A DNA stretch of 61,211 nt, the filler included, from Sphacelaria rigidula (taxonomy: Eukaryota), in the NCBI GenBank assembly GCA_964200075.2. It is 5 parts of 5 records of this genome, joined end to end, with 100 filler letters (N's around TTAATTAATTAA, not from the genome) between each part and the next. Parts side by side here need not be neighbours in the genome. Positions count along the whole stretch, not along the records: positions 36,791 to 48,951 come from CAXNAA020004063.1; 4 more parts are not named here. One strand, 5' to 3'. Every line of letters starts with the position of its first letter. The stretch's first letter is position 1. Below, piece by piece: positions 12,167 to 49,051 of this stretch. The notes under the pieces are model-generated. The model was given only the letters and a program-made list of their open reading frames with translations, had not been told where the DNA came from and did no database searches. The position numbers were made by a program, and so were the translations under genes.

Positions 12167-12266
12167 NNNNNNNNNNNNNNNNNNNNNNNNNNNNNNNNNN
12201 NNNNNNNNNNTTAATTAATTAANNNNNNNNNNNNNNNNNNNNNNNNNNNNNNNNNNNNNNNNNNNN
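12167..12266. other. artificial contig spacer (N44-TTAATTAATTAA-N44)
   Basis: 100-bp block with a six-frame-stop linker; the identical block occurs four times in the window. Confidence 0.98.
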
Positions 12267-24428: not shown

Positions 24429-24528
24429 NNNNNNNNNNNNNNNNNNNNNNNNNNNNNNNNNNNNNNNNNNNNTTAATTAATTAANNNNNNNNNNNNNNNN
24501 NNNNNNNNNNNNNNNNNNNNNNNNNNNN
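24429..24528. other. artificial contig spacer
   Basis: Same N44-TTAATTAATTAA-N44 block. Confidence 0.98.
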
Positions 24529-27569: not shown

Positions 27570-27805
27570 ATGCTACGGTAGGGGTACGCAAATAATTTCT
27601 GATACTAGAATTGTTAGGAGCCCTTTATCTCATCCAAAACACGACTTCTGAAAATATGCGAAAGTACGCCAGGATTACTCTTTCAATGTGCTGGGGATAT
27701 CCCGAATAAATCTGCAAAAGGGGATGCCCTGNNNNNNNNNAGAATCGTTAGGAGCCCCTGAACCAGACATAATTTCGCGAAAAAAGTGCACCCCTACCGT
27801 AGCAT
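27570..27805. mobile_element. MITE family F2 inserted in the Gypsy integrase tail
   Basis: Perfect 16-bp IR ATGCTACGGTAGGGGT / ACCCCTACCGTAGCAT; homologous to 13954-14188; contains a 9-N gap. Confidence 0.75.
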
Positions 27806-27895: not shown

Positions 27896-28100
27896 CTATG
27901 GGGATTGTATCCAATAGAGAAGGATAGCACGACGGTGCAGTTGAAGGTCGGACTCGCGTTCCCAAGACGCACGCCGAAGACCTTGCCAGTGTGTCTTGTA
28001 CATAACGGTAATTTTGTCGCCAGGGCCTCGAGTGATTTGGTGGCCGGAAATGTGGGACACGGCCAAGCGGAGAGGTTTTTCAGTCACGTCATCGGTGGTA
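27896..28100 (-). pseudogene. integrase C-terminal chromodomain
   Basis: VSHISGHQ...VMYKTHWQGLRRASWERESDL fits the chromodomain pattern Y-x-V/T-x-W-x-G...S/TWE. Confidence 0.85.
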
Positions 28101-28485
28101 ACGTGGTACGGTGGAGATTTTGTTGAGTAGTAGCTGTTGAGCACGTATTGAGTGAGACCTGCAGGCAGGTATTGAGGCATGTCCGTAGTGCCATGCGGGT
28201 TCGTGCAAGGCTTGCAACGATGCACAGAGACGCGAGATTTAGGGTCGTGCCCCTGGAGGTCACGAGGTGAATCGAGGTGGAGGAGTTTGTCGCCAACAGG
28301 CTTGCCGTCACGAGACGTCGGCGAGGGTCCGACTATGAGAATCTTGAACGGCACCGTGCAATTGAGGGACAGCTTGGTCTTCAAGACTGTTGCCTGGGCA
28401 GTGCGGTCAGCACCTTGACAGATGGTGGACAAACTGTTGTAGAGCCAGACCCAATCGCCGATTTTCCAAGTAGGACGTTTGTGCA

Positions 28486-30830
28486 TCAAGTTGTAGAGGG
28501 TGGTGTTGGATCTTTCAAGGCGTGAGGCGTTGATAGCGAATTGTTCGCGCACCAAAGTGAAAGCCTTGCGCGACGAGCCCGGGCGAGGTCGTGGTAGGAT
28601 AGCTGGTCCTTGTCCAGACCTTGGTGACCATCGAAGGTATGTCTTTCGAAAACGGTGATGAGCAGACGAGGGTAGCGTCCAAGGTGTAGCTCGTTGGGCG
28701 AGAGGCCCGTAGCCGCGTTAACCGAATTGTTGTAAGACAGCATGACATGCGAAAGATGAAGGTCCCAGTCATTCTGGCGGTCGTTCATGACCATGGATAG
28801 CATTTAAGTCATTGTGTGGTTTACACGTTCAGTCCCACCATTACCGTTAGGGTGATAGACGCTCGTGGCAATTTTGCGAATGCCGACGAGCTTGTACGAA
28901 GCATCCGAGAGTTCGGAGCAAATACTTTTACCATTGTCGGTGAGGAGCCGTTTCGGGCAGCCATAGTGCTTAATGTAGTCATGGACGAGAATGTCCGCTG
29001 TGCCGGCAGCAGTGAAATCGCTAGCAGTAACAGCATACATAGCCGCGTGACGGCTGAAGCGGTCTGCGAAAAGTAGAATGTAGGTATTACCACGGTCAGT
29101 TGAGGGTAAAGGGCCGAAGTAGTCAAACGATACGAAGTGACCAGGAGCGTTTGGAAGCTCCATGGAAATCACCGGCCATCGCGCAGTCTGTCGAGAGGTT
29201 TTGCGAGCCTGATATTTGAAACATCGTCGGACCCAAAAACGCGTGGATGCTTCCATGCCAATCCACCAATGAAAGCATTCAAGGAGCGTTAACGTGCGCG
29301 TGACGCCTAAGTGGCAGGACAAATCAGAGTGACAGCCCTTCATGACCCACGGACGCATCATAATAGCGACATAGATGCGGATAGGGGCGTCATGACGCAT
29401 ATGTCCCGAAGTGGCAGTTGTTACTGCGGCAGCCGTGGTCAAAGGTGAGTGGAATCGGCGAACAAGCAAATGAACGTCGTCGTCAGTCATGAAGATAATA
29501 CCTTTGCGTGCCAGCTCGAGCAAGTCAGAGGCGGTGGGGGCGGGTAGAGTGCCCACAGAAGTCAGGATCTCAGCCGGGAAAGGGGTGGGGCAGTTAAGCC
29601 GTAAGTACCGCATTGTCGCACAACAGAGCAATTCCTGTTGTTGGTTGCGAGCCCAATCGCGGTGAGAGTAGCTAGGGAGAAATTCTCGAAGTTGTCCTTC
29701 AGTCGGAGAGCCAACCAAACATGGTGGCTCAGGAGGGAGTGGCACAGGTGAAGAAGCAGGGGTGCCGACGTCAACATCTCGATCCGGGGGCCCATCTGAC
29801 GCATGTGTATCGCGAGTCAGTGGCGCAGGTGCTTGGAGACTCCCAGAAGGCGGCGTGGGGGTAGCGCGAACTGGTGAACGCGATTGGCGCGTGGGGCGCA
29901 CAAGGGGTGCGGGTGGTGTTGGTACAACACTGGGCACGCGGCCGGTTCTTGGAGGCGTGGTACGGCCCGTGGGGGCACGAGGCGGTAGCGGTGACGCATT
30001 GCTAGAAGCGGCCGGCGGCGGTGGTGGCATCACAGCACGCGAAGAATTTTCACGAGCTGCCGACCGAGAGCGCGTGTTGTCGGAGATGAGGTGAACAGTT
30101 GATGGTGGTGGCGCCGAGATGCTCGCGAGAGGGCCGAAAGTGCGGAAGTCGGCAAAATCTGCAGCTGTGGGCGCTAAGCCATCCAAAACTGTATCAAGGG
30201 GCAGAGGGCGGGGGGCCCCCATGTGCAGACCTGTTTCAGGGCATTGCAGGTCAAGCGCGTAGATGGGCGTTGAAAAACGCCGAATGGGGTAGACGCCTGG
30301 TTCGTCAGGTTCAGTCAAGCGGCAAGCGGGACTAAAATCTACCGCTGTAGGGGGCAGAGGCAATCGCAGAAGCAGGTCAGCATTGCCGTTAGATTTGCCC
30401 AGACGGTGTTTAACAGTGTACTGGTAAGCAGTCAAGAACTCCAGCCACCGTTGTAAGCGGGGGTTATGTTCTCCAACCTTAGCGAGTTGTTCAAAAGCTC
30501 CGTGATCTGTATAGGTGTGGAAAGGCACGTGGAACAAGTACTGTCGAAGCCGTTTAATAGCCCAACTTATGACTCCGCCTTCTAGTTCGAGTGGACTCCG
30601 GTTTGCCTCATTTGGGAGGGTTGCGCGGCTGACGTACAAAATAGGTCGGACAGAGTCATCCAGTTGAGGCTGATTCAAAACGGCGCCGAACCCATCTGTG
30701 CTAGCATCGGTGTGTAGTTGGAAAAGACGTGAACCGTCTTGTACCGCATCCCAATCCGGGAAACAAAGAACCGGTTTTTCGGTCAGTGTTTAGAGCAGTT
30801 CGCGGACGATGGCTTCCATGTCTTTGGTTA
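28486..30830 (-). pseudogene. pol: pol: RNase H + Pro-rich linker + integrase
   Basis: HTDASTDGFGAVL, LELE, YTDH and NADLL (RH); H-H-C-(Y) zinc finger and the SFDYFGP, LTDNG, GTERVN DDE triad. Frameshift near 30830 and stops near 30789 and at 28804. Confidence 0.95.
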
Positions 30831-33812
30831 ATCAAACAGGACGTTTTTCTTCAATAAATCTGTGATGGGCCGGATCCGCTTGGACAAAGTGGGCAAACCA
30901 TTGCGATAATATGAAAGTCCGCCCAACAGCGAGCGAACCTGCGAAATATTGGTGGGCATAGGCATATCAGTCATACCCTTGACTTTGTTCGTGTCTGGGT
31001 GCAATCCAGCAGGAGAGATAGAGTGTCCCAGAAAATCCGATTCAGTGGCTCCGAGTCGAGCTTTGGATGGAGACAATTTTAAGTCGTGTGTACGCAAGCG
31101 GGAGAGGAATTCCTGTAGAGTGCGAACATGCGCCTTAAGGGAGGCATCAAAAGCGATAGCATCGTCTAGATACATGATGACATGCTCGAGACCGTCAGTA
31201 ACGCGTTGCATGAGGAGTTGAAAGCAGCCAGGTGCGGTGGCAGCGCATTGTGGCATACGAAGCCATACAAAAAACCCTGAAGATGTACAGAGCGCTGTCA
31301 AGGGAACTGTATCGGGGTGAATTGCATTTTGGAAAAATCCAGATGCCAGATCGAAAGTGCTGAATATTTTTCCTCCGCCGAGAGAGTCGAAGATTTCGTC
31401 GATGCGAGGGATGGGGAGTTTTCCCACGACAGTGACGCGATTCAGCCGTTTGTAAGTCACGGTGATGCGCATGTTGCCATCTTTTTTGGGGACAACCACG
31501 AGGGGTGAGGCCCATGGCGAAGACGAGTGTTGAATCAGACCAGCTCCTAAGTATGCCTCCAATATAGCATTGGATTTTTTGGTGAGTACGGGATTTGTTC
31601 GATACGATCGAGATGAGATTGGCAAAACGGCAGGTTGTAGTGTTATCTCGAATGGCAATGTTTTACAATGCCCGAGATCTGTCTTGGATCGGGAAAATCT
31701 GTCCTGATATTCCAGGAGAACATATTGTAGCCCTCGGATGACGGCGGGCTCCCAGCCTGGACCATGTAGGTCAAAATGGATATCACGCAAATGGGGTGGA
31801 AGTTGGTGCCGCATTTGCAGGAAATGTTCCCGAGACTCGACCGATAAGCGTTGAAGCACTTCATCAGGAGGTTCAGCAGGGGATCGGTCGGATTCCACCG
31901 CAGAAATCCGAGTCGGGGGTGAGGCAAATAGGTTGAAGTATGGCTCATCGACGCAGTGGACAAAACCATCAGTCGGCGGCGTGAGATCAGGCGCCGGAGG
32001 GTCGGCTACACAGGGTTCCAGAGGAATGTGCATAAGAGGAGCCGCGGCGATGCCCAAAACATCGCCAGGTTCCAAATTAGCACGGCCTGTGAGAGGCAGG
32101 AGTTGTTCGCCGTACGAGACACAATGGTCAGCGCCAGCGGGCGCGCCAACTTTAGGCAGCAATTCCGCAAGGTAGTGGCCGGTGAGGGCAGGCATACCGT
32201 TGCGGCGAACAAGCAAAACTTCCAAGAGTTGAGGCTCGTCGGAAAGGGTGACGCCAGAACTGCCATTGTACCGAAGATGGTAAGCCGCTCCAGTAGCCTG
32301 CTCATTCCTTTTGTAGGCTAAGGCACAATTGAGGGTACCAAAGTGTTCTAGTTGGAGTTCTTCACGAGGCTCCGACTGAGGCGATAATGGTGGGAGGGTG
32401 CGGTACGTACGTTGGTCAAACTGCATGTAGCTATCTCTGCCAAGAAGGAGAGCATGATGCATGGTGCTATCAGAGACGATGTAAGCCCAGACTGCGAGAC
32501 TAGCCGAATGTGTATCATTGTGGAAAAATTGCACACTAAGACGAACAGATTTTCGTGTCGTCAAGGGTGTTCTGGAGTCGCCGAAACCGCCCCAAACGCG
32601 AGGTTGGGTGGTGATTTCGCAAACATCGTAAGCAGCGCTAGTCTGCTTCATGTGATTCCACATGGATTCTTTGATGAATGTCTGTGGACTACCGCTGTCT
32701 AGCAACGAGACGCACTTGGCGCGCGCGGTGGCGTCAGGGCCGCAGTGTAATGCTACGCGGGTAGTGAAGGTAGCAGGATCAACGGACACCTTACCACCAA
32801 CAAGGTCAGGGCCATGTTCAGATAACGTGAATTGGTCAGGATTAGTCGGACTGACCGTGAAAACGGATGGCGGGTGATCCGCGGGGGGTTCGACGGTATC
32901 GGTAGACAGCGCGGGGGTCTGATCCGATCGTGAAGGGCAGTGTGAATCAGAATTTTGATCAATCTCGTAGATGACTGGCTCGGAGGTACAAGAGTCATCA
33001 TTGAATAGAGATTGTTGCGAAGTGCTACGGGGGTCATCGGTGGAGGATCTCGTACCGTCTGAAAGGTCCGATTTGGACTCCTCTTGGATGCCTGGCAATG
33101 TCATCGAGCTCAAAGTCGCCGCTTTTGGGGGAGAATGAGGTCGGAATTTTCCGCTGACGGGAGGGGGGCGTGTCAATGCTCGCGCTTCCTTGGGGGCATG
33201 ACGACGAGGCTTCCTCTCGTGCCGTGACAAATGGCTGGGAACTTCCAAGACTTCTTGGGGAACTGCAATTGCATCCAGTTGAGGTGATGTTGTCAGTATC
33301 GGAGCATGGTAGGCCGAAACTTGTGGACTGCCCGCTGGCAAGCTCGGTACGAAGGGCACTGCTAAATGTGAAGGGGGACGAGTGTTGTCCACTGTATGTT
33401 GGGGTGGTTTCGCAGAAGAGTGGCGCGAAAAAAGACTACGATCAGGCTGGGTAGGAGTCGAAGGGTTTGAAGTGGTCAGTTTCGAACCATCAACATCAGA
33501 ACCAGTTGAAGAAAGTCTGCTACAACCGGTGCGTGCGGTCGTTGAGGAAAGCCTGTGCCTCAAGGGTCCGCGGTCAGTCTTCCCACACCTCAGATTTATA
33601 CTTAGTTCCGGAGGACCAATTCTGGAGTCAAGCATAGAGCTGGGTTGTGAGTCAACACAACGATTACGCTGTGAATATGACGATAAAGACGGGAGTCGAG
33701 AAGAACGGCCGTTATCAGATCTCCTACATAGTGTTGGCTGAGAACGTTTTGTCACCCGAGTGTGTGTTGGATGAGTCTTCGATGTTGCTATCGGCGGCGC
33801 CGAAGACTTCAC
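30828..33812 (-). pseudogene. pol: pol: aspartic protease + reverse transcriptase
   Basis: LLDSGS and LLGRD (protease); SSSPWASPLVVVPKKDG, FSTFDLASGFFQ, RMPQ, YLDD and FLGH (RT). Confidence 0.97.
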
Positions 33813-34022
33813 GCCGTCGTCGGCGTGTCATGGATCGTTGCGATCCGTCATGAAAGAACCAAGGTTTCTGGCATTGGGGTTGGAGTTGTCGTGAGTCGGC
33901 CCCGTTCGCTGGTGATGACCATGCGAAGACTGAGAAGGGAGGAAAGAACTACTGTATCTCTATGACGACTACCTGAGACGGTGTTGGTGGTGTGGCGGCG
34001 GTCGCGATTTGAGCGAGAGTCG

Positions 34023-36690
34023 CTATGATTGTGAATGGCGAGAAAGTGGACGATACTCGCGCCTGCGTTTTTGCCATCGGCGCCACGCCCGCCTGTTGCT
34101 CTGAAGTTTAGGGTTCATGAGCGGAAGAGTATTGATGCAAGGTTCAGGGTAGTCACGCATACTGTGGCCAGTACCATTGCACTTGGTGCATGTGTTGGCA
34201 TGGCGACGAAAAGCATCCTTGCGAGCCGAAGGCGAAAGCAAGGGTGTCCACAAATGTGGATCATCGGTGGTGAAAGCAGTTGTGGAAACGACATAAACGT
34301 CATCAAAAGTGTCTGCCGAAAAAGGCCAAGCGTCGAAGCTTGCACGGAACGGGTCTTTGTTGCTACAAACAGACATGACCGATCCACCGACAGAGTTGGG
34401 TGTCCAAGTATTGCTGGACAAAGTCTGAGTGCGTCCACGAGACCCGGAGGTACTCGTGGATGCGGCACAAAAGGTCTGCGAAGACCCAGAAGAACATTGT
34501 GTGCCACGAATGGCAGGCGTCAAATTATGCTCTTGATCTACAAACGCATTCCACATCGCGTCTACGGAGGCGTAAGTCACCTCTTTGTGCGCCAAAGCGC
34601 CCGGAAATAGAGACGACATCAGCGTCGGAAATTGCTGAGCGATGCTATTGCGAACATACGTCTGACACATAGCATCACTAGGGTCATTCTGTCGGCCAGT
34701 ACCAGTTACACTAGACACCAAAAGCTTGAATTCGCGTAGGTGGTCAGCAAAGGGCACGTCTGTTGCCACGGCGGAGGAACTGAGGCGCTTGATGGCGCCT
34801 GCCTGATCAGACTTTTTCAAATTGCCGAATAATAGCGGCGCTGTTTGCCCGGCGGCACAATCTTGATCCATGGCGACGAAGAAGTCGAGAATCTGCGTCA
34901 AAGAGGCAACAACGTCAGGGGAGCGACGGCTGATTGAGGGGTGCAAAGCCTTATGCAGCGGTGTTTGCCATCCATCAATCCAGTCAGAGTCTTCGAAACG
35001 TTGTTGACCAGTTGCATCGGCCAACTCAAGGATGTTGCGCATCGTTCGACGCATTGACGAAATGAAAGCGGACGTAAACTGACCAGAGACCTCATTGTCT
35101 GTAGCAGGCATGGTTTTGGTATGCCAGAGTTCTTTACATCCATCTGTAAGTACTCACGCTTGATTGCAGCAACACGAGACGCTTCTCTACGAGTATCGTA
35201 AGCGACTTTATCAGCGGCAGCTTGTTTTTTGGCTGCGGCGGCGGCAGCTAGTGACCGGGCCGAGTTTGAAGACAATGGGCGAGCCGAATTGTCATTATCA
35301 CTATCCGTGAGACTTGAAAGGTAAACAGACGCAGTTGCTAAAGGAGGCGTTACTTGCCTGACGGCCGGTGAGGGCCGCACGGATCGTGCTGAGGCGTGGT
35401 GGCGGTGCCTGGCAATCGATGAACTAGAAGATTGATTACCAGACAGTTTGTGGCTGCCCCAGGTTGTTCGTCGACCGTTGTTGTTGCGGAGGGCCCCGTG
35501 ACCACGGCGTGGTGTGGCCCCGGAAGGGTCGTCGTCAGAGTCGTCATCATCACGACGGTGGCGAGGGGGGTGGGGTGTGATCCAGGCCCCATCATCGTCG
35601 GGCGGCAGCATGTTGTGGGCTGCCCGCATAGCAGCGAAGAGGGCGGCGACGGCGGTCTCATAAGCGGGGCGACTGTCCCCGGTACCAATTGTAAGGTAGA
35701 GGGCAATTCGTTCCATGGTGAGAGCTCCCGGGTCGTTGTGCGGCAGCTGTCCCCCTTGCTGAAGGAAGGGGACGATCACATTATTTATGGACAAAGTTAG
35801 TGAGCGCAAAGCCTGCTCAAAGGCGCGGAGAACATTGTTGCGGTTATACTTCCCTGAAAGTTGGCGTAGCGTCCAAGAAACCAACAACGTTCGCCGCCCT
35901 GAAGGCGGAGCCAAGGTGTGGGCGCAGGGGGCGCCGAGGCGTGAGGGACCTGCCGTGGTGCAGGTGGGGTGCGCGTAGGCGAGGCCGTAGAAGCGGCAGC
36001 AGCAGCGTATGGGCGCGAGGGCCGACGGTTCTCCGCAGAGCCTGGATGTGCAGAGGTAGGCGCAGGCGCTGACGCGGTCAGCGTTGTCCTCAGAAGAGGA
36101 AGGTGTCGCTCCTGTTCCAAAGATCGGAGAGCCGAGGTGGCGATGGCCGTGGCCGCGGTGTATTGGCGCAGGCGATGTTCATCGCGCCGGATGGTGTCGT
36201 GCATCTTGTCAAAGGCCGCGAGACGCTCATTCAGAGTCTCCTGGGCCGCCTGCTGGCGGCTGGTCGCCGAGTCGACGGTTCGACGTTGGCGCGTGAGACG
36301 TGCCGTGAGGTCGTCATGAAGAAGACGGTGGGCAGCGTCGTCCGCCGTTTGGCGAGGCAAAGGTGGTGTAGGGTGCGTGGCCGGTTGCATGGCGCGGTAA
36401 CCCTCGAGGATCTGCTCCTGATCGGAGCGGGGACCTCCCAACCAGAGCCGGGGCGGAAGGCCCGGCGGGGAATGCTCGACGCCCAACAGGGGGCGGTCGT
36501 CCGTGATAGATCCGGGGGCAGGCGCCGGAGCCGAGCCCGTGACAGTAGAAGCCTGCGGCGAAGTGGCCGATTCCTCATCAGTGGCCGTGATGGGGGTGTC
36601 ATCCGCGGCCGCCGCGGCGGGAGCGGCAGTCGCCGCCGCGCTGGGGGCGATTGTCGTGACACGGGTGCTTTCCGCATCTGTGTCGATGTC
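34023..36690 (-). pseudogene. gag: gag-like ORF split over three frames
   Basis: Overlapping ORFs 35797-36486+, 34898-35914 and 34023-35111; zinc knuckle CTKCNGTGHSMRDY (CX2CX4HX4C with the last C changed to Y). Confidence 0.8.
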
Positions 36691-36790
36691 NNNNNNNNNN
36701 NNNNNNNNNNNNNNNNNNNNNNNNNNNNNNNNNNTTAATTAATTAANNNNNNNNNNNNNNNNNNNNNNNNNNNNNNNNNNNNNNNNNNNN
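36691..36790. other. artificial contig spacer
   Basis: Same block; it truncates the 5' end of the Gypsy element. Confidence 0.98.
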
Positions 36791-40400: not shown

Positions 40401-40487
40401 ATCTCATCATGGGTTGGAAAGGGGGGGGCATGTGGATACTACCTTATGAAATTATTCCTGTTACATTTTGATCTCGCTTAATTGGTA

Positions 40488-40920
40488 TAACTCGCCAAAA
40501 ACACGACTTTGCTCGGAAACCTTCAGAACGGTTGGCTGGAAGCACGTGTTGCACCCTTGCACCGACTAACACCGAGCAGATGTTGTTCTCTCCATCAGCC
40601 ACGCCCAAGAAAGAGGGACCGTACCGCACCTATCTCCAAGAGATTACGTATTAGAGGTTGGTAACGACCAGGGTGCAAAGAACAAAATCGGTATAGAGAA
40701 GGTATACTTACGCGCAGTGTGCCTCAAATTATTCCTGATTATTTTCAATCACACGCAATCAATGAAATACGCTGAAAACTCAGTGTTTGCTCGGAAGTCG
40801 TCAGGAACATCACCTGGGAATATGTGCTGCACCCTTGCCCGAAGCAACATCGGGGAAGAAATATTGTTGTCTCCATCGAAGGTACGCGAGGGAGGTTTGG
40901 TCCTCGAGCCGTACCGTACC
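40488..40920 (+). repeat. two diverged direct copies of a ~140-bp unit
   Basis: 40488-40630 versus 40765-40920 (TTTGCTCGGAA...TGCACCCTTGC...TCTCCATC...CCGTACCG). Confidence 0.6.
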
Positions 40921-41619
40921 CGAGTTGGTCCAGATTCGCATCCGGTGCATCTGAACGGGTCATTATTAATCAGTAGTACCCTTTCTGGACCGCAGCCCTT
41001 TTTTTTCAAGAGGTGTGCAGATGATTGGCATTTCTGTTGTAATTAGTCAGCACGCGCTCCGGTAAACACGCAGAATGCGCAAGCACATTATCCTGGGAGT
41101 CGACTTTGTCTCTGCTTCATTATATCCCTTCTCACCGACTACCATTGGTTGTGTCGGGGTAGGCTAACCCATCGACAGCACAACCAAGAAGTAAGGGAGG
41201 GTAAGTTGACCTACGGGCTTGCCTGCGTTTCGTGTCAGTGGTGATGCAACACACAGCCGCGGTAGTGGGTCATGCCCGACAGTGCTAACGCCCAGAGTCA
41301 ATCCTGCAGCTTCGAAGTTCTACCCTAGAATGGGAACCAAATTGAACCCCGCAGCTGCACCTTTTTACCCGGCGATAAAACACCGTTATGGAAAGCACGT
41401 TGATTGAGATGAGGCACGTGTGAGTGAGTATCAGATTCGGCGGACCGGAGATAGCGCCTGACGAGGGGTGGGAAGGCGGCACCCTCCCCGCGAGACCAAC
41501 AAGCAAGGCAAGTACTGTGATAGACTTGCCAAAGAAAAATCGAAACAGAAAAAAATCTCGCCTGTACAATTAGGAGGCGGGATAGACCAGGAAGGAGAGC
41601 AGAGCAAAGAGGAAGGCGC

Positions 41620-42600
41620 GTGAATATTGAGAAGGCTAATGCTAGTTTGGGTGATGGAGAGCTCAAAGTGGCTACCCATGATGTCCGTACACCGTCCCTC
41701 ACGGGAAAGAACGGAGCTGGCCATGCTGAGGTGGTCCTGCAAAAATTTCAGGCAGTCGGATGTGACATCATCGGGCTACAAGAAACGAGGAGACCAGGTC
41801 GAACCGAATTTTGTGCGTCGGGATATCGTGCGTTTTGCTACGGGGTAGAGGGGGGCAAGGGAAGGGCTGGTCAACACGGGGTTTTGTTGGCGGTCAAGGA
41901 GTCGATCATCAGCAAGGCGACGTGGACTCTTGCACTCATCAGCCAACGCCTCATGTCGATGACTTCCAACCAAGCAGGTGAAGCAAATGATTCTATATTT
42001 GTAGCTGCATATGCCCCTACAGACACTCCACAGTACAGAGAAGGGAGATATGTGTTCTGGACTGATTCAGACGGCATTGTGAACCGTATCCCCCAGAAAC
42101 ATCACCTGCTTATTTTCATGGACGCTAACGCCAGGACTGGAGTACGAACAGGCGAGGAGGAACGTCAAGTTGTAGGAGCGCACGGCCGAGACTCCCGATC
42201 CAACGACAGTAACGGCACATCTCTGATGCAGTTTCCAGGCGACAACAGGCTTTCCTTGGCCAACAGTTACTTTTCCACCCCCAAGGGAACACCTCGCGTA
42301 CGTTCAACGGTGTTGCAAATCGCTCCGCGGAAAAGAAACGCACTCACTACATCATCACACGGCAAGATCACCGTAGGCTTGTTTGGAATGTCACCGTCCA
42401 CCTTCAACCCTCCCAACCTCCCCAACTCGTCGGACTCTGACCACAGCATCGTGTGCGCCTCAGTGCAGCTCCTTGGTCGCTTCGCACACAACGGACCTAG
42501 ACGGATCCCAATTGGGCGGACAACGATCGACAGACGGGCAATAGTGTCCGATCCCAAAAGATGTCAGCAGCTCACCCAGCTCATCAGCAGCGAGCTATAA
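41620..42600 (+). pseudogene. LINE apurinic/apyrimidinic endonuclease domain
   Basis: VATHDVRT, DIIGLQETRR, HGV, AYAPT, MDANA and SDSDH motifs. Confidence 0.95.
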
Positions 42601-42965
42601 CAGAGTATACCTGGTGATGAATTTAGTTCACTGGCTACGAACTTTGCCGACGTACTCTTGAGTGCCGCTGAGAAGGTGGTACCCCGTGTGGCCCGAAAGC
42701 CACGTATTCCGGGGTGGTTCGAGAATGCTGAAATCAAAACGGAATTCGAACAGGCCTGGATAGAGGGGGAAAGAGCGAGATCAACGGTGAGACTGGGATC
42801 ATCTCGAGATAAACCCGCGTGGCGCACAGTTCGAGCAGCATGCAATAAGGTCAAATAGGCGATCCAACTTGGGGTGGATAAATGTATGGATGTGTATGCT
42901 AGAGAACTAGAGGAGGATACTCGAGCGGGGGACATGAGAGGGTGGTATAGACATCTCAACGGAGG

Positions 42966-44724
42966 GTGGAGACTGTCTGGACGATCGAGAGTGAGCAGTA
43001 CATGCGAGGTGAGGACGGCAATCTTATGCGGGACAAAGGTTTGATCAGTGGGAGATGGCAACGGCACTTCCCTATATTGCTGAACGCCATATCGGCAACT
43101 ATTAACCGAACCGTCATCGAGGAGTTTGTTGAACGACCAATAGCGCTGTCACTAGGAGACCCGCCAAGCCGAAGTGAAACTGAGGAGACTCTGAGAGCTA
43201 TGTCGAACGGTAAAGCAACCGGTCCGGATGGTATTCCTGCTGAAATTCTGAAGCGTGGACTGAACGGGGAGGCGTCGGAGATTCTGTACGACTTCCACAG
43301 CATCGTTTCTGCGGTTTGAACATCTGGCGAGGTGCCGCAAGAATGGAAAGATGTCACCATCAAAGTGCGATACAAAAAACAAAACTGGAACCAGTGTGGT
43401 AACTGCAGAGGCATTTCACTTGTGGCACATACTGCTAAAGTTCTCCTCAAAATCGTAGCCAACAGGCTCGGTAATTTCTATGAGGAAACTGATGTCTTCC
43501 CGGAACAGCAGTGTGGATTTAGGCGCCAAAGATCGACCACAGACATGATGCTCGTAGTACGCCGACTCCAGGAGTTGGGACGGCCGAGCAACGTCCCAAT
43601 AGGCGTGTGCTTTATCGATCTGCAGAAAGTCTACGATTCCGTAGACCGCACGCTCCAGTGGGAAGTGCTTGCTCGGTTTGGAGTCCCGTCGCGAATGATC
43701 GCGATCATCCGTATGTTTCATGACAGCATGCGAGCTCGGGTACAGCTAGAAAGTGGCGAAATATCAGCGTGGTTCCACGTCTGCCAGGGACTCAGGCAAG
43801 GTTGCGTTTCATTTCCGCTGTTGTTCAACATCTTCGGAGCAGACTTGGAGGAAGTGAGCGTTCAGCGGTTTGCGGCGGACCCAGTCATTGTCTCAGGCTT
43901 GGTCTTTCTAGATGATGCGCCAAAAGATGACGGCGGTGAACCCGTGGAAGAGACACCTCTGGAAAAGGTGCGACGAGGGGTGTGGGCAATGCTTTATGCG
44001 GACGACGCCGGCAAAGCCTCGAGGACCTCAGAAGGCCTTGCGCGAATGGTGGCCGTGATGGTGATGGCCTGCCAGGAATTCGGATGGTTTCCGAGAGCAA
44101 GACAGAGTCCATGTGCCTTTGGCCAGTAGGCCGCCCTGGGTATAGAAGCTGCCGGTCAACGGTATAAGCAGACGGGGAAGTTCATCTACCTTGGTGAAGC
44201 TATCATCGCAGATGCGAAAATGTCCATCGAAAGCAACCGTCGTATCAGCGCGGCGCAGGCGCGTATCCGGAAATATAGTTCCCAACTCTACGACCGACCC
44301 AACGCCGAACTATCCTTGAAAGTTCGACGGCTTAAAGAGGAGGTGGTAGAAGCTCTGTTGTATGGATGTGCCACATGGACGTTACGTTCTGAGGACTTTG
44401 ACAGTCTAGGGATTGCTCATCACAACCTCTTGCTGCGAGTGGTTGTATTCCGCAGGGAAGATCAAAATGGCTACAAAACGTTTTGTACAGAACGGTGCTC
44501 GAGATGACCAACTGCGAACGTATCGAGACGACTATCCGCAAACGTCAACTCTGGTTCGTGGGAATCCTTGTCCGGCAGAACGAAACACGCCTTCCTCAGC
44601 GCGTTATGAACGGTCGGTTGACCACACGAGTGCCCAAGGAGGCCGCCCGCCCCCCAAGCGATGGGAGGATACCCTGCAGGAGAACCTACGTACGCTAGGG
44701 GCTGTCCCGCACAAAGGAATCTGA
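42966..44724 (+). pseudogene. LINE reverse transcriptase and C-terminal region
   Basis: KATGPDGIPAE, RGISL, QCGFR..RSTTD, FIDLQKVYDSV, GLRQGC..PLLFNI, LYADD, FIYLG and LLYGCATW motifs. Confidence 0.95.
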
Positions 44725-45899
44725 CGGAAACGGTTCGTCTACGATGTAGAGGTGAACGATGCATACGATTGGATCACTGCGGCGAAACACATAGGCAAAT
44801 GGCATATTGGAGTCGGACAAGGAGCGGAAGAGTTTGAGGGCACGTGGCGACGCGCGGGCAAACGAGAGTCAGACCACCGTCACAAACGAGAGGCTGCTGC
44901 GTCGAGGGTCGCCAATCCTCGAATGCTGTCTGCCCGTATCAGTTGTTGATTATTTCCTTGGTCGGTAGCTCTGCGGTGCACATTGGTGTGTGTCTGTACA
45001 TACCCTGCTGCTGTCCTGAATCCCTCGGACGTTTTCCTGCCTTCTCTTTTTTCCTTTTATTTTCCTTTTTTGTTTTTAGATCGATCATTTCTTTCTGTGC
45101 TTTGCTTTTGTTGGCTTTTTATTCTTCCCTTCTTTGTTTTTAACGTCTTACCATACTATGTCGTTATGTTCGGCTTTTTATATTCCTTCTTTTTCTTCCG
45201 CGAGTGTTTTCAGTTTTTTTTTCTCGGGTACGTCGATCATGTAACCACGGCTGGATCCCTGGGGGATCGGCTAAAGTACGACAATCAATCAATCAATCAA
45301 TCAAATCAATAACTGCCGTTTACAAATCTAGTGACGACCAAAAACTAGAACGACGGGCCACGCATTCTTTTTGAGAGCAAGTATTTTGAATCTACCCACG
45401 ATACTCATCAAACATATGTTGACACCGAAGTTATCAGTGATTTCGGCAAATGCAATCGACGATTGGAAATAAACAGCAGCTTTTGCACCTCAGATATCGG
45501 GTGATGAGATTTGTGCTGGACAACCGGGCGTAGCATACAAGTGCACACTTCACGCCGCATTTTACGTTGACAAACATTACATCCAGTTTTGTTTTCATCT
45601 GTTTTCGAATATTGCACACTGGAGATTTCCCGGAAAACGTTTTCGTTCTAGCTTGACATTTGTGAGGATAAGTCTCATGAATTTGATACTTAGGAGCACT
45701 TCCCACATTTCTCTCGACATTTTGAGTTTCGCATGAGTTTCGTAGCGGAGAAGGAGTCTTCAAAAGCATGAATATCATAGAGTACTGGGGCTGACAGGTT
45801 GAGTTGACAAACGAGACTTGTTTGCAGAACTCCATATTTAGTGTATTTCTTGTGCGTGACCTTGCATGTGCTCTAGGTCGAGGCAGGTCGAGGCATAAC

Positions 45900-48951: not shown

Positions 48952-49051
48952 NNNNNNNNNNNNNNNNNNNNNNNNNNNNNNNNNNNNNNNNNNNNTTAAT
49001 TAATTAANNNNNNNNNNNNNNNNNNNNNNNNNNNNNNNNNNNNNNNNNNNN
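48952..49051. other. artificial contig spacer
   Basis: Same block; it truncates the LRR gene. Confidence 0.98.

Follow-up and report, generated by a model that had tools for sequence, protein, structure and literature searches.

How the proteins of long interspersed nuclear elements (LINEs) find their own RNA, the behaviour called cis preference, is a long-standing question, for which a direct contact between ORF2p and PABPC1, a poly(A)-binding protein (PABP) of the cytoplasm, was put forward in 2025 as the answer in human L1, according to the accessible text of that study. The same question is raised by a locus in 61,211 nucleotides of DNA from the brown alga Sphacelaria rigidula (assembly GCA_964200075.2), a stretch that is called the window here and always taken at its full length. 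Between approximately 41145 and 45311 on its + strand the window contains a dead copy of a highly repeated, RTE-type LINE of the brown alga with a single open reading frame (ORF), and upstream of the endonuclease this copy encodes two short peptides that resemble PAM2, the motif through which host proteins bind the MLLE domain of PABP. It was therefore asked whether these peptides are part of the protein of the element, whether they agree with PAM2 as structurally defined, and which function would best account for them. The motif is found at the N-terminus of the family ORF, it agrees with PAM2 position by position, and as judged from sequence comparison it probably works by docking on PABP.

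Paired PAM2-like motifs in a decayed reading frame

Translation of the window gave, in the + frame at 41210..41407, a peptide ending in ...PRVNPAASKFYPRMGTKLNPAAAPFYPAIKHRYGKHVD and followed by a stop. Motif 1 (VNPAASKFYP) lies at 41297..41326 and motif 2 (LNPAAAPFYP) at 41342..41371, both on the + strand, with 15 residues from start to start and a linker of five residues, exactly where a preliminary description of this DNA had read them upstream of the endonuclease. That description had also carried the motif frame through two TGA codons and one shift in an A-tract near 41550 into the endonuclease frame, and the path could be retraced: the motif frame stops after motif 2 at TGA 41405-41407 and again at TGA 41459-41461, and one shift at the A-run 41550-41556 is needed to join it with the endonuclease ORF at 41524..42600. 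When the full-length relatives P0076 and P0100 (relatives are designated by P numbers) were used in tblastn, the ORF homology was spread over five successive frames from 41279 to 44907, and in combination with the ORF list about five frameshifts and seven in-frame stops were counted, for which reason the window copy is regarded as a dead RTE-type LINE copy. No further copy of the element was found inside the window by self-blastn. Translated in all six frames (122,418 residues), the window contains the pattern LN..A..F.P once, against 0.053 expected, and the chance of a second, relaxed match at most 30 residues away is about 6e-4.

The motif in the ORF of the family

The motif belongs to the family ORF, at its N-terminus, and is joined to endonuclease and reverse transcriptase (RT) in relatives. 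The first relative, P0001 (141 aa, Sphacelaria rigidula), was found by searching with the 65-aa window frame; it begins MGTKLNPAAAAHYP / MGTKLNPAAA.., is open from motif 2 into the endonuclease, carries R at both positions where the window has TGA, and needs no frameshift. A HMMER search with P0001 returned 75 representatives at E <= 1e-3. Both repeats of the motif, variously decayed, were present in 14 sequences including the window, and most of the two-repeat sequences begin M..VLT..L-N-P (P0002-5, 12, 20, 22, 24), with the Met about eight residues before motif 1, while the other groups have a single motif right at the N-terminus, with which motif 2 aligns. The tandem arrangement described earlier is thus correct for the window's own group and does not extend to the five other groups, which have one motif each. 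The Met before GTK at 41330 is not the start of the family's protein; relatives mostly have L there, and their start Met lies upstream of motif 1.

Like P0001, the relatives P0002, P0006, P0057 and P0075 are open from the motif into the endonuclease, which bears out the suggestion that the motif frame is the ancestral N-terminus. A search with P0001 for longer homologues examined 475 candidates and gave none at E <= 0.01, a negative that is weak because a later profile search for long proteins gave 45 matches. The N-terminal motif was found on the long ORFs P0077-79, P0082 and P0085 (684-810 aa), P0080 and P0081 (662-663 aa), and P0108 (755 aa), of which P0077, P0085 and P0108 extend to the RT. 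The single open ORF from motif to RT that had been anticipated is provided by P0100 (1223 aa), in which the Pfam models PAM2, Exo_endo_phos and RVT_1 match residues 5-14, 121-375 and 682-957, respectively. Some gene calls, such as P0076, begin downstream of the motif. The named relatives are both from brown algae, P0001 from Sphacelaria rigidula and P0114 from Ascophyllum nodosum. P0010 and P0030 both start with MGSEMCIRD, which looks like an adapter from sequencing that was translated where a contig ends, so that the first residues of some database matches are probably not biological.

Variation among copies in the host

Contigs were compared with 40700-42200 at a likeness of at least 80%, which gave 838, 852 and 933 contigs in three DNA-like runs (X1-X3); a fourth run with 65 contigs (X10) is only guessed to be RNA, and its contigs at 41151-41496 were not used as evidence. 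All counts per position are among the matches listed. At 41297, 25-28 contigs per DNA-like run had G>C (V to L), and at 41315, 42-50 had A>G (K to E). Most other copies thus have LNPAASEFYP as motif 1, which is the canonical PAM2 consensus LNxxAxEFxP as given in the accessible text of PMC7356810. In motif 2, 41360 C>G (P to A) is present in most other copies. The first TGA is private to the window copy, with 41405 T>G (TGA to GGA) present in 50, 54 and 48 contigs of the DNA-like runs and in 7 of X10. In the C-run 41275-41277, 16 contigs of X1, 19 of X2 and 14 of X3 have one base fewer, which places the ATG at 41272-41274 in frame with the motifs. Within the A-run, one base is absent at 41556 in 2-3 contigs per run; the second TGA and the A-run frameshift are resolved by the protein relatives and not by the contig rows listed.

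Length also varies among the copies. Many contigs lack some 104-108 bases, from 41550/41554 to 41659, the depth falls about tenfold over 41567-41668, and 41550-41660, part of the basic linker, is the most length-variable stretch among copies.

Agreement with the PAM2 definition and constraint on the peptide

In the accessible text of the structural papers (PMC2854688, PMC7356810), PAM2 is defined by a hydrophobic residue at position 3 (Leu, sometimes Pro or Phe), Asn or Ser at position 4, Pro or Val at position 5, Ala at position 7, a preferred Glu at position 9, Phe at position 10 (Trp in PAM2w) and usually Pro at position 12, with positions 6 and 8 exposed. At the level of sequence, the motif matches this published definition position by position. 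Positions 3-4 are L-N in motif 2, V-N in motif 1 of the window and L-N in motif 1 of most other copies, and L-N or F-N in all six groups; positions 5 and 7 are P and A in both window motifs, with P in all groups; positions 10 and 12 are F and P in both window motifs, position 10 being F in five groups and W in P0108. This W, like the F that P0100 has at position 3, is one of the rare substitutes that the definition permits. In an alignment of seven representatives of six groups, whose identity upstream of the endonuclease amounts to 25-45%, all six groups retain [L/F]-N-P-x-[A/V]-x-x-[F/W]-x-P and positions 6, 8 and 11 vary, and the kept positions are the MLLE-contacting positions of the published structures, as far as their accessible text describes them. 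Neither an untranslated motif frame nor freely varying key residues, two of the outcomes named in advance as fatal to the PAM2 proposal, were seen; the ORFs of the relatives are open and the MLLE-contact positions are kept.

The Pfam PAM2 model matched 9 of the 75 relatives at E <= 0.1, with P0004 (20.0 bits), P0020 (20.6) and P0057 (21.2) at or above the 20-bit cut-off. A loose form of the pattern was found within the first 70 residues of 29 of 120 proteins and a strict form in 14 of them, against 13 loose matches and no strict match in the 40,382 residues elsewhere; most proteins without the pattern in their first 70 residues begin downstream of the N-terminus. In a column comparison of 28 mostly decayed sequences, motif 1 showed L in 15/20, N in 13/20, P in 16/20, A in 15/20, F in 13/20 and P in 10/20, and motif 2 showed L in 23/27, N in 19/25, P in 23/25, A in 20/25, F in 14/26 and P in 20/26, and four of the motif 2 columns (L, N, P and A) belong to those that vary least.

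For each motif, the six codons of the core were compared in the window sequence carrying the letters of most other copies (motif 1/motif 2: CTC/TTG, AAT/AAC, CCT/CCC, GCT/GCT, TTC/TTT, CCT/CCG), which gave six synonymous base differences and zero amino-acid changes in the core, with a difference of residue at positions 8 and 9. These synonymous core differences, taken together with the variable exposed positions between groups, argue for selection acting on the peptide rather than on the DNA or RNA.

The setting of the motif is that expected of a short linear motif. In an AlphaFold2 model of the relative P0006 (254 aa, 32-row alignment, mean predicted local distance difference test (pLDDT) score 66.6), residues 1-60 are without secondary structure (pLDDT 40-47), residues 66-112 form a long helix that corresponds to the basic segment (pLDDT ~80), and the endonuclease fold begins from residue 116. 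The motif is thus predicted, for P0006, to lie in a disordered and accessible tail, which suits a short linear motif. No Pfam match was obtained for the region between motif and endonuclease (P0006 residues 15-112), and the linker with its predicted basic helix may serve the element for binding nucleic acid or for import into the nucleus. A search of the ESM Atlas with residues 1-40 of P0100 gave no usable match.

Proposed mechanism and alternative explanations

The protein of the family starts with a short tail, predicted to be disordered, that carries one PAM2-type motif, or two through a 15-residue duplication in the window's group, and the conserved linker, the basic helix, the endonuclease and finally the reverse transcriptase follow it. 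In the proposed mechanism, the motif would dock on the MLLE domain of cytoplasmic PABP while the nascent chain is emerging, and because it is the first part out of the ribosome it could bind PABP on the poly(A) tail of the very mRNA under translation. The nascent enzyme would thereby be tethered to the 3' end of its own RNA, favouring cis preference and assembly of the ribonucleoprotein (RNP), and the motif would take up the MLLE site through which deadenylases are brought in by PAN3, Tob and GW182-type factors. The tether might also, as proposed beforehand, protect the RNA from deadenylation and stand in for the missing ORF1.

Several observations weigh against docking on PABP. The Pfam PAM2 model (PF07145) gave E = 0.053 and 13.7 bits for motif 2 of the window, below the 20-bit cut-off, which the model scan suggested by the preliminary description reached in three relatives; P0100, with 14.4 bits, is also below the cut-off, as are six of the nine matches among the relatives. 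P0001 has H in place of the key Phe, and this Phe is retained in just 14/26 sequences at motif 2 and 13/20 at motif 1, mostly decayed copies. Position 7 is Val in one group (P0075, P0077-79, P0082, P0085) and A elsewhere, a bulkier residue being unfavourable there according to the accessible text of the structural papers (PMC7356810), and the full-length P0102 (1226 aa) has no recognisable motif. The 43-aa peptide had no match among PDB chains by phmmer. The element ends in CAAT repeats and not in poly(A). The downstream linker (VSKxQIR, GRRGxGRL, RET) is conserved to much the same degree, and the motif is accordingly one conserved part of a conserved N-terminus, not an island that alone rises above its flanks.

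Much of this would also be seen if the N-terminal peptide were real and selected but independent of PABP, serving another host factor, nuclear import, RNP assembly or stability, with a likeness to PAM2 that is convergent or coincidental. The conservation of the whole 110-residue region before the endonuclease and not of the motif alone, the borderline Pfam scores, the relaxed PAM2 geometry suggested by Val at position 7 in one group and by the motif-less P0102, and the tail that is not poly(A) all fit such a function, which we nevertheless consider rather unlikely, as seven positions (3, 4, 5, 7, 9, 10 and 12) fit the structural definition together, the substitutes F at 3 and W at 10 are those that PAM2 allows, and the strict pattern does not recur elsewhere in these proteins. 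It is more doubtful still that the motif binds the MLLE of a protein other than PABP, for example that of a ubiquitin ligase of the HECT type or of a different RNA-binding protein, and acts in turnover or RNA transport instead of on poly(A). MLLE domains occur outside PABP, and UBR5-type ligases carry one. MLLE domains of the fungal RNA transporter Rrm4 bind PAM2-like sequences according to PMC9249222; the algal motif, however, fits the canonical consensus LNxxAxEFxP of the PABPC type. That the stretch is kept as nucleic acid (5' untranslated region, internal promoter or RNA structure), or is a chance match with translation starting downstream, is largely refuted and hardly credible. LINE 5' regions often contain internal promoters, the window frame is broken four times within 290 nt, and some predicted proteins (P0076, for one) begin beyond the motif, but many relatives are open from the upstream Met through the motif into the enzyme, an in-frame stop stands just before that Met, codons of the core differ synonymously and leave its residues the same while positions 6, 8 and 11 vary, and neither the 0.053 matches expected per window nor the probability of about 6e-4 for a second motif nearby favours chance.

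Docking of the N-terminal PAM2-type peptide on PABP thus remains the reading that we hold to be probable on the pattern of kept residues. The fuller evolutionary scenario has, in our estimate, about an even chance of being right: a brown-algal RTE-type LINE lineage without ORF1 would have taken over a host PAM2 peptide, its nascent protein would seize PABP via MLLE in convergence with the PIE/RRM1 contact of L1, it would be the first PAM2 mimic in any transposable element, and in one group the duplicated motif would bind adjacent PABPs on a tail with higher avidity. If this is true, the capture of PABP would be an independent and convergent route to the PABPC dependence of human L1, and the presence of a different PABP-docking peptide in a second, unrelated LINE clade would make direct PABP capture look general for LINEs. 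Transposons would also join the entities that mimic host short linear motifs, and a functional handle would be gained on one of the most abundant repeat families of brown algae.

Anatomy and class of the element

The 5' end and a 5' untranslated region of about 120 nt are placed at 41145..41271 (+ strand, limits approximate) from a jump in contig depth. In the three DNA-like runs the single-copy depth of 10.5/70/36 rises to 885/5770/2539 in the bin 41159-41209, single-copy flank contigs stop at 41174 or 41224, and eight X3 contigs have loose ends before 41145; because of the depth jump, the 5' end is set near 41145-41160. No target-site duplication of at least 7 bp was found around the element ends. 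The ATG at 41272..41274 (+), which matches the family start codon, has an in-frame TAG a short way upstream, at 41263-41265, and is out of frame with the motifs in the window copy owing to the extra base in the C-run 41275-41277. After the motifs follow, at 41372..41655 (+) according to the alignment of relatives, the N-terminal linker HxxGKHxDGDETxVSKxQIR..GRRGxGRLxPxRET and an Arg/Lys-rich segment, interrupted in the window copy by both TGAs and the A-run frameshift.

The apurinic-type endonuclease domain occupies approximately 41671..42430 (+; Pfam Exo_endo_phos E = 5.2e-6 on ORF 41524..42600, and tblastn with P0076/P0100), and the reverse transcriptase domain approximately 43374..44211 (+; Pfam RVT_1 E = 1.5e-20 on ORF 43320..44129, and tblastn frames), the two lying in different frames in the window copy. 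In tblastn the match with P0076 stops at 44889 and that with P0100 at 44907, and with the ORF homology ending at about 44907 the 3' untranslated region extends approximately over 44908..45281 (+). The 3' tail at 45282..45311 (+) consists of CAAT-type short tandem repeats (45282-45310 by Tandem Repeats Finder, and by inspection of the sequence), in agreement with the earlier statement that the element ends in CAAT repeats and not in poly(A).

The single-ORF layout, with an N-terminal apurinic-type endonuclease and an RT, is seen in the Pfam domains of the window and in the full-length P0100, P0076 and P0102; the room for a separate ORF1 upstream is only about 120 nt between the 5' end of the element and the ATG, and the 3' short tandem repeats by which the RTE clade is recognised are present as the CAAT-type tail. 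The RTE label rests on this architecture, and the element may instead belong to RTE-X. The nearest solved structures to P0100 in a PDB sequence search were L1 ORF2p, R2 and other RTs, all via the RT domain.

Just upstream of the element, at 40751-40852, the contig depth is 2 to 4.5x that of the single-copy flank, and the frames 40472-40654 and 40570-41046 share similar peptide stretches, which suggests a small dispersed or local repeat beside the insertion.

Other features of the window

A Gypsy-like long terminal repeat (LTR) retrotransposon with long open frames lies on the - strand at 27899-36178; it contains a 999-aa ORF with RVT_1 and a 661-aa ORF with RNase H, an integrase zinc-binding domain and the rve core, and looks far better preserved than the RTE copy. 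No PABP gene was found in the window by a Pfam scan of 52 of the 57 stop-to-stop ORFs of at least 130 aa, the other five being inside the element. Paired 44-base N runs, 12 bases apart, are located at 12167-12266, 24429-24528, 36691-36790 and 48952-49051, with a spacing of 12,261-12,262 bases, a regularity that looks like a masking or assembly artefact rather than biology. Short N runs are also present at 27732, 52599 and 58748.

Range among elements and comparison with known systems

A PAM2-like pattern upstream of the endonuclease was found in 0 of 15 distant RTE-like JGI metagenome loci (24-30% identity), in which several ORFs are short or cut, and the motif is absent from the three distant proteins P0117-P0119. 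In the accessible literature on PAM2/MLLE and transposable elements, no description of PAM2 in a transposon protein was found, and to that extent the novelty claimed in the preliminary description stands; direct binding of a LINE protein to PABPC1, on the other hand, has already been reported for human L1 ORF2p, through PIE (PMC7617806). Within brown algae, the Ectocarpus elements RTE-1_Ec32 and RTE-2_Ec32 are reported, in the accessible text of PMC12477816, to have a single endonuclease-RT ORF, a length of 4.0-4.6 kb and a (CAA)n tail. The window element, with its single endonuclease-RT ORF, about 4.2 kb and a CAAT-type tail, resembles them in a comparison made by description only.

With the host PAM2 peptides of Paip1/2, eRF3, ataxin-2, PAN3, Tob and LARP4, as far as the accessible sources describe them, the algal motif shares L/F at position 3, N at 4, P at 5, A at 7, E at 9, F/W at 10 and P at 12, together with a predicted location in a disordered stretch near a terminus and, in one LINE group, the presence of two copies. 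It differs in being carried by a retrotransposon endonuclease-RT protein and not by a host translation or decay factor, and in that its binding is putative. The two motifs of the LINE are adjacent and 15 residues apart, whereas the copies in eRF3 overlap according to the same sources.

The closest functional parallel is with L1. When PABPC1 is knocked down, L1 retrotransposition falls, and the association was held to be RNA-dependent, according to the accessible text of PMC4782638, while human L1 ORF2p has since been described as binding PABPC1 RRM1 directly via PIE, located in the linker that follows the endonuclease (Ghanim et al. 2025, PMC7617806; accessible text), in a model that proposes co-translational cis preference and tail protection. 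In both systems a LINE enzyme would use a peptide of its own, putative in the alga, for direct PABPC binding near its N-terminal part. The differences, on the side of L1 as given in that text, are that PIE occurs in the L1 clade, which has ORF1, whereas the algal element is of the RTE type; that PIE is located at residues 272-297, after the endonuclease, whereas the algal motif is N-terminal and of the PAM2 type; that PIE binds RRM1, whereas the predicted target of the algal motif is MLLE; and that L1 primes on poly(A), whereas the algal element ends in CAAT repeats. With PIE of L1 ORF2p, the proposed PABP mechanism thus has a precedent in another clade, through another peptide and another domain of PABP.

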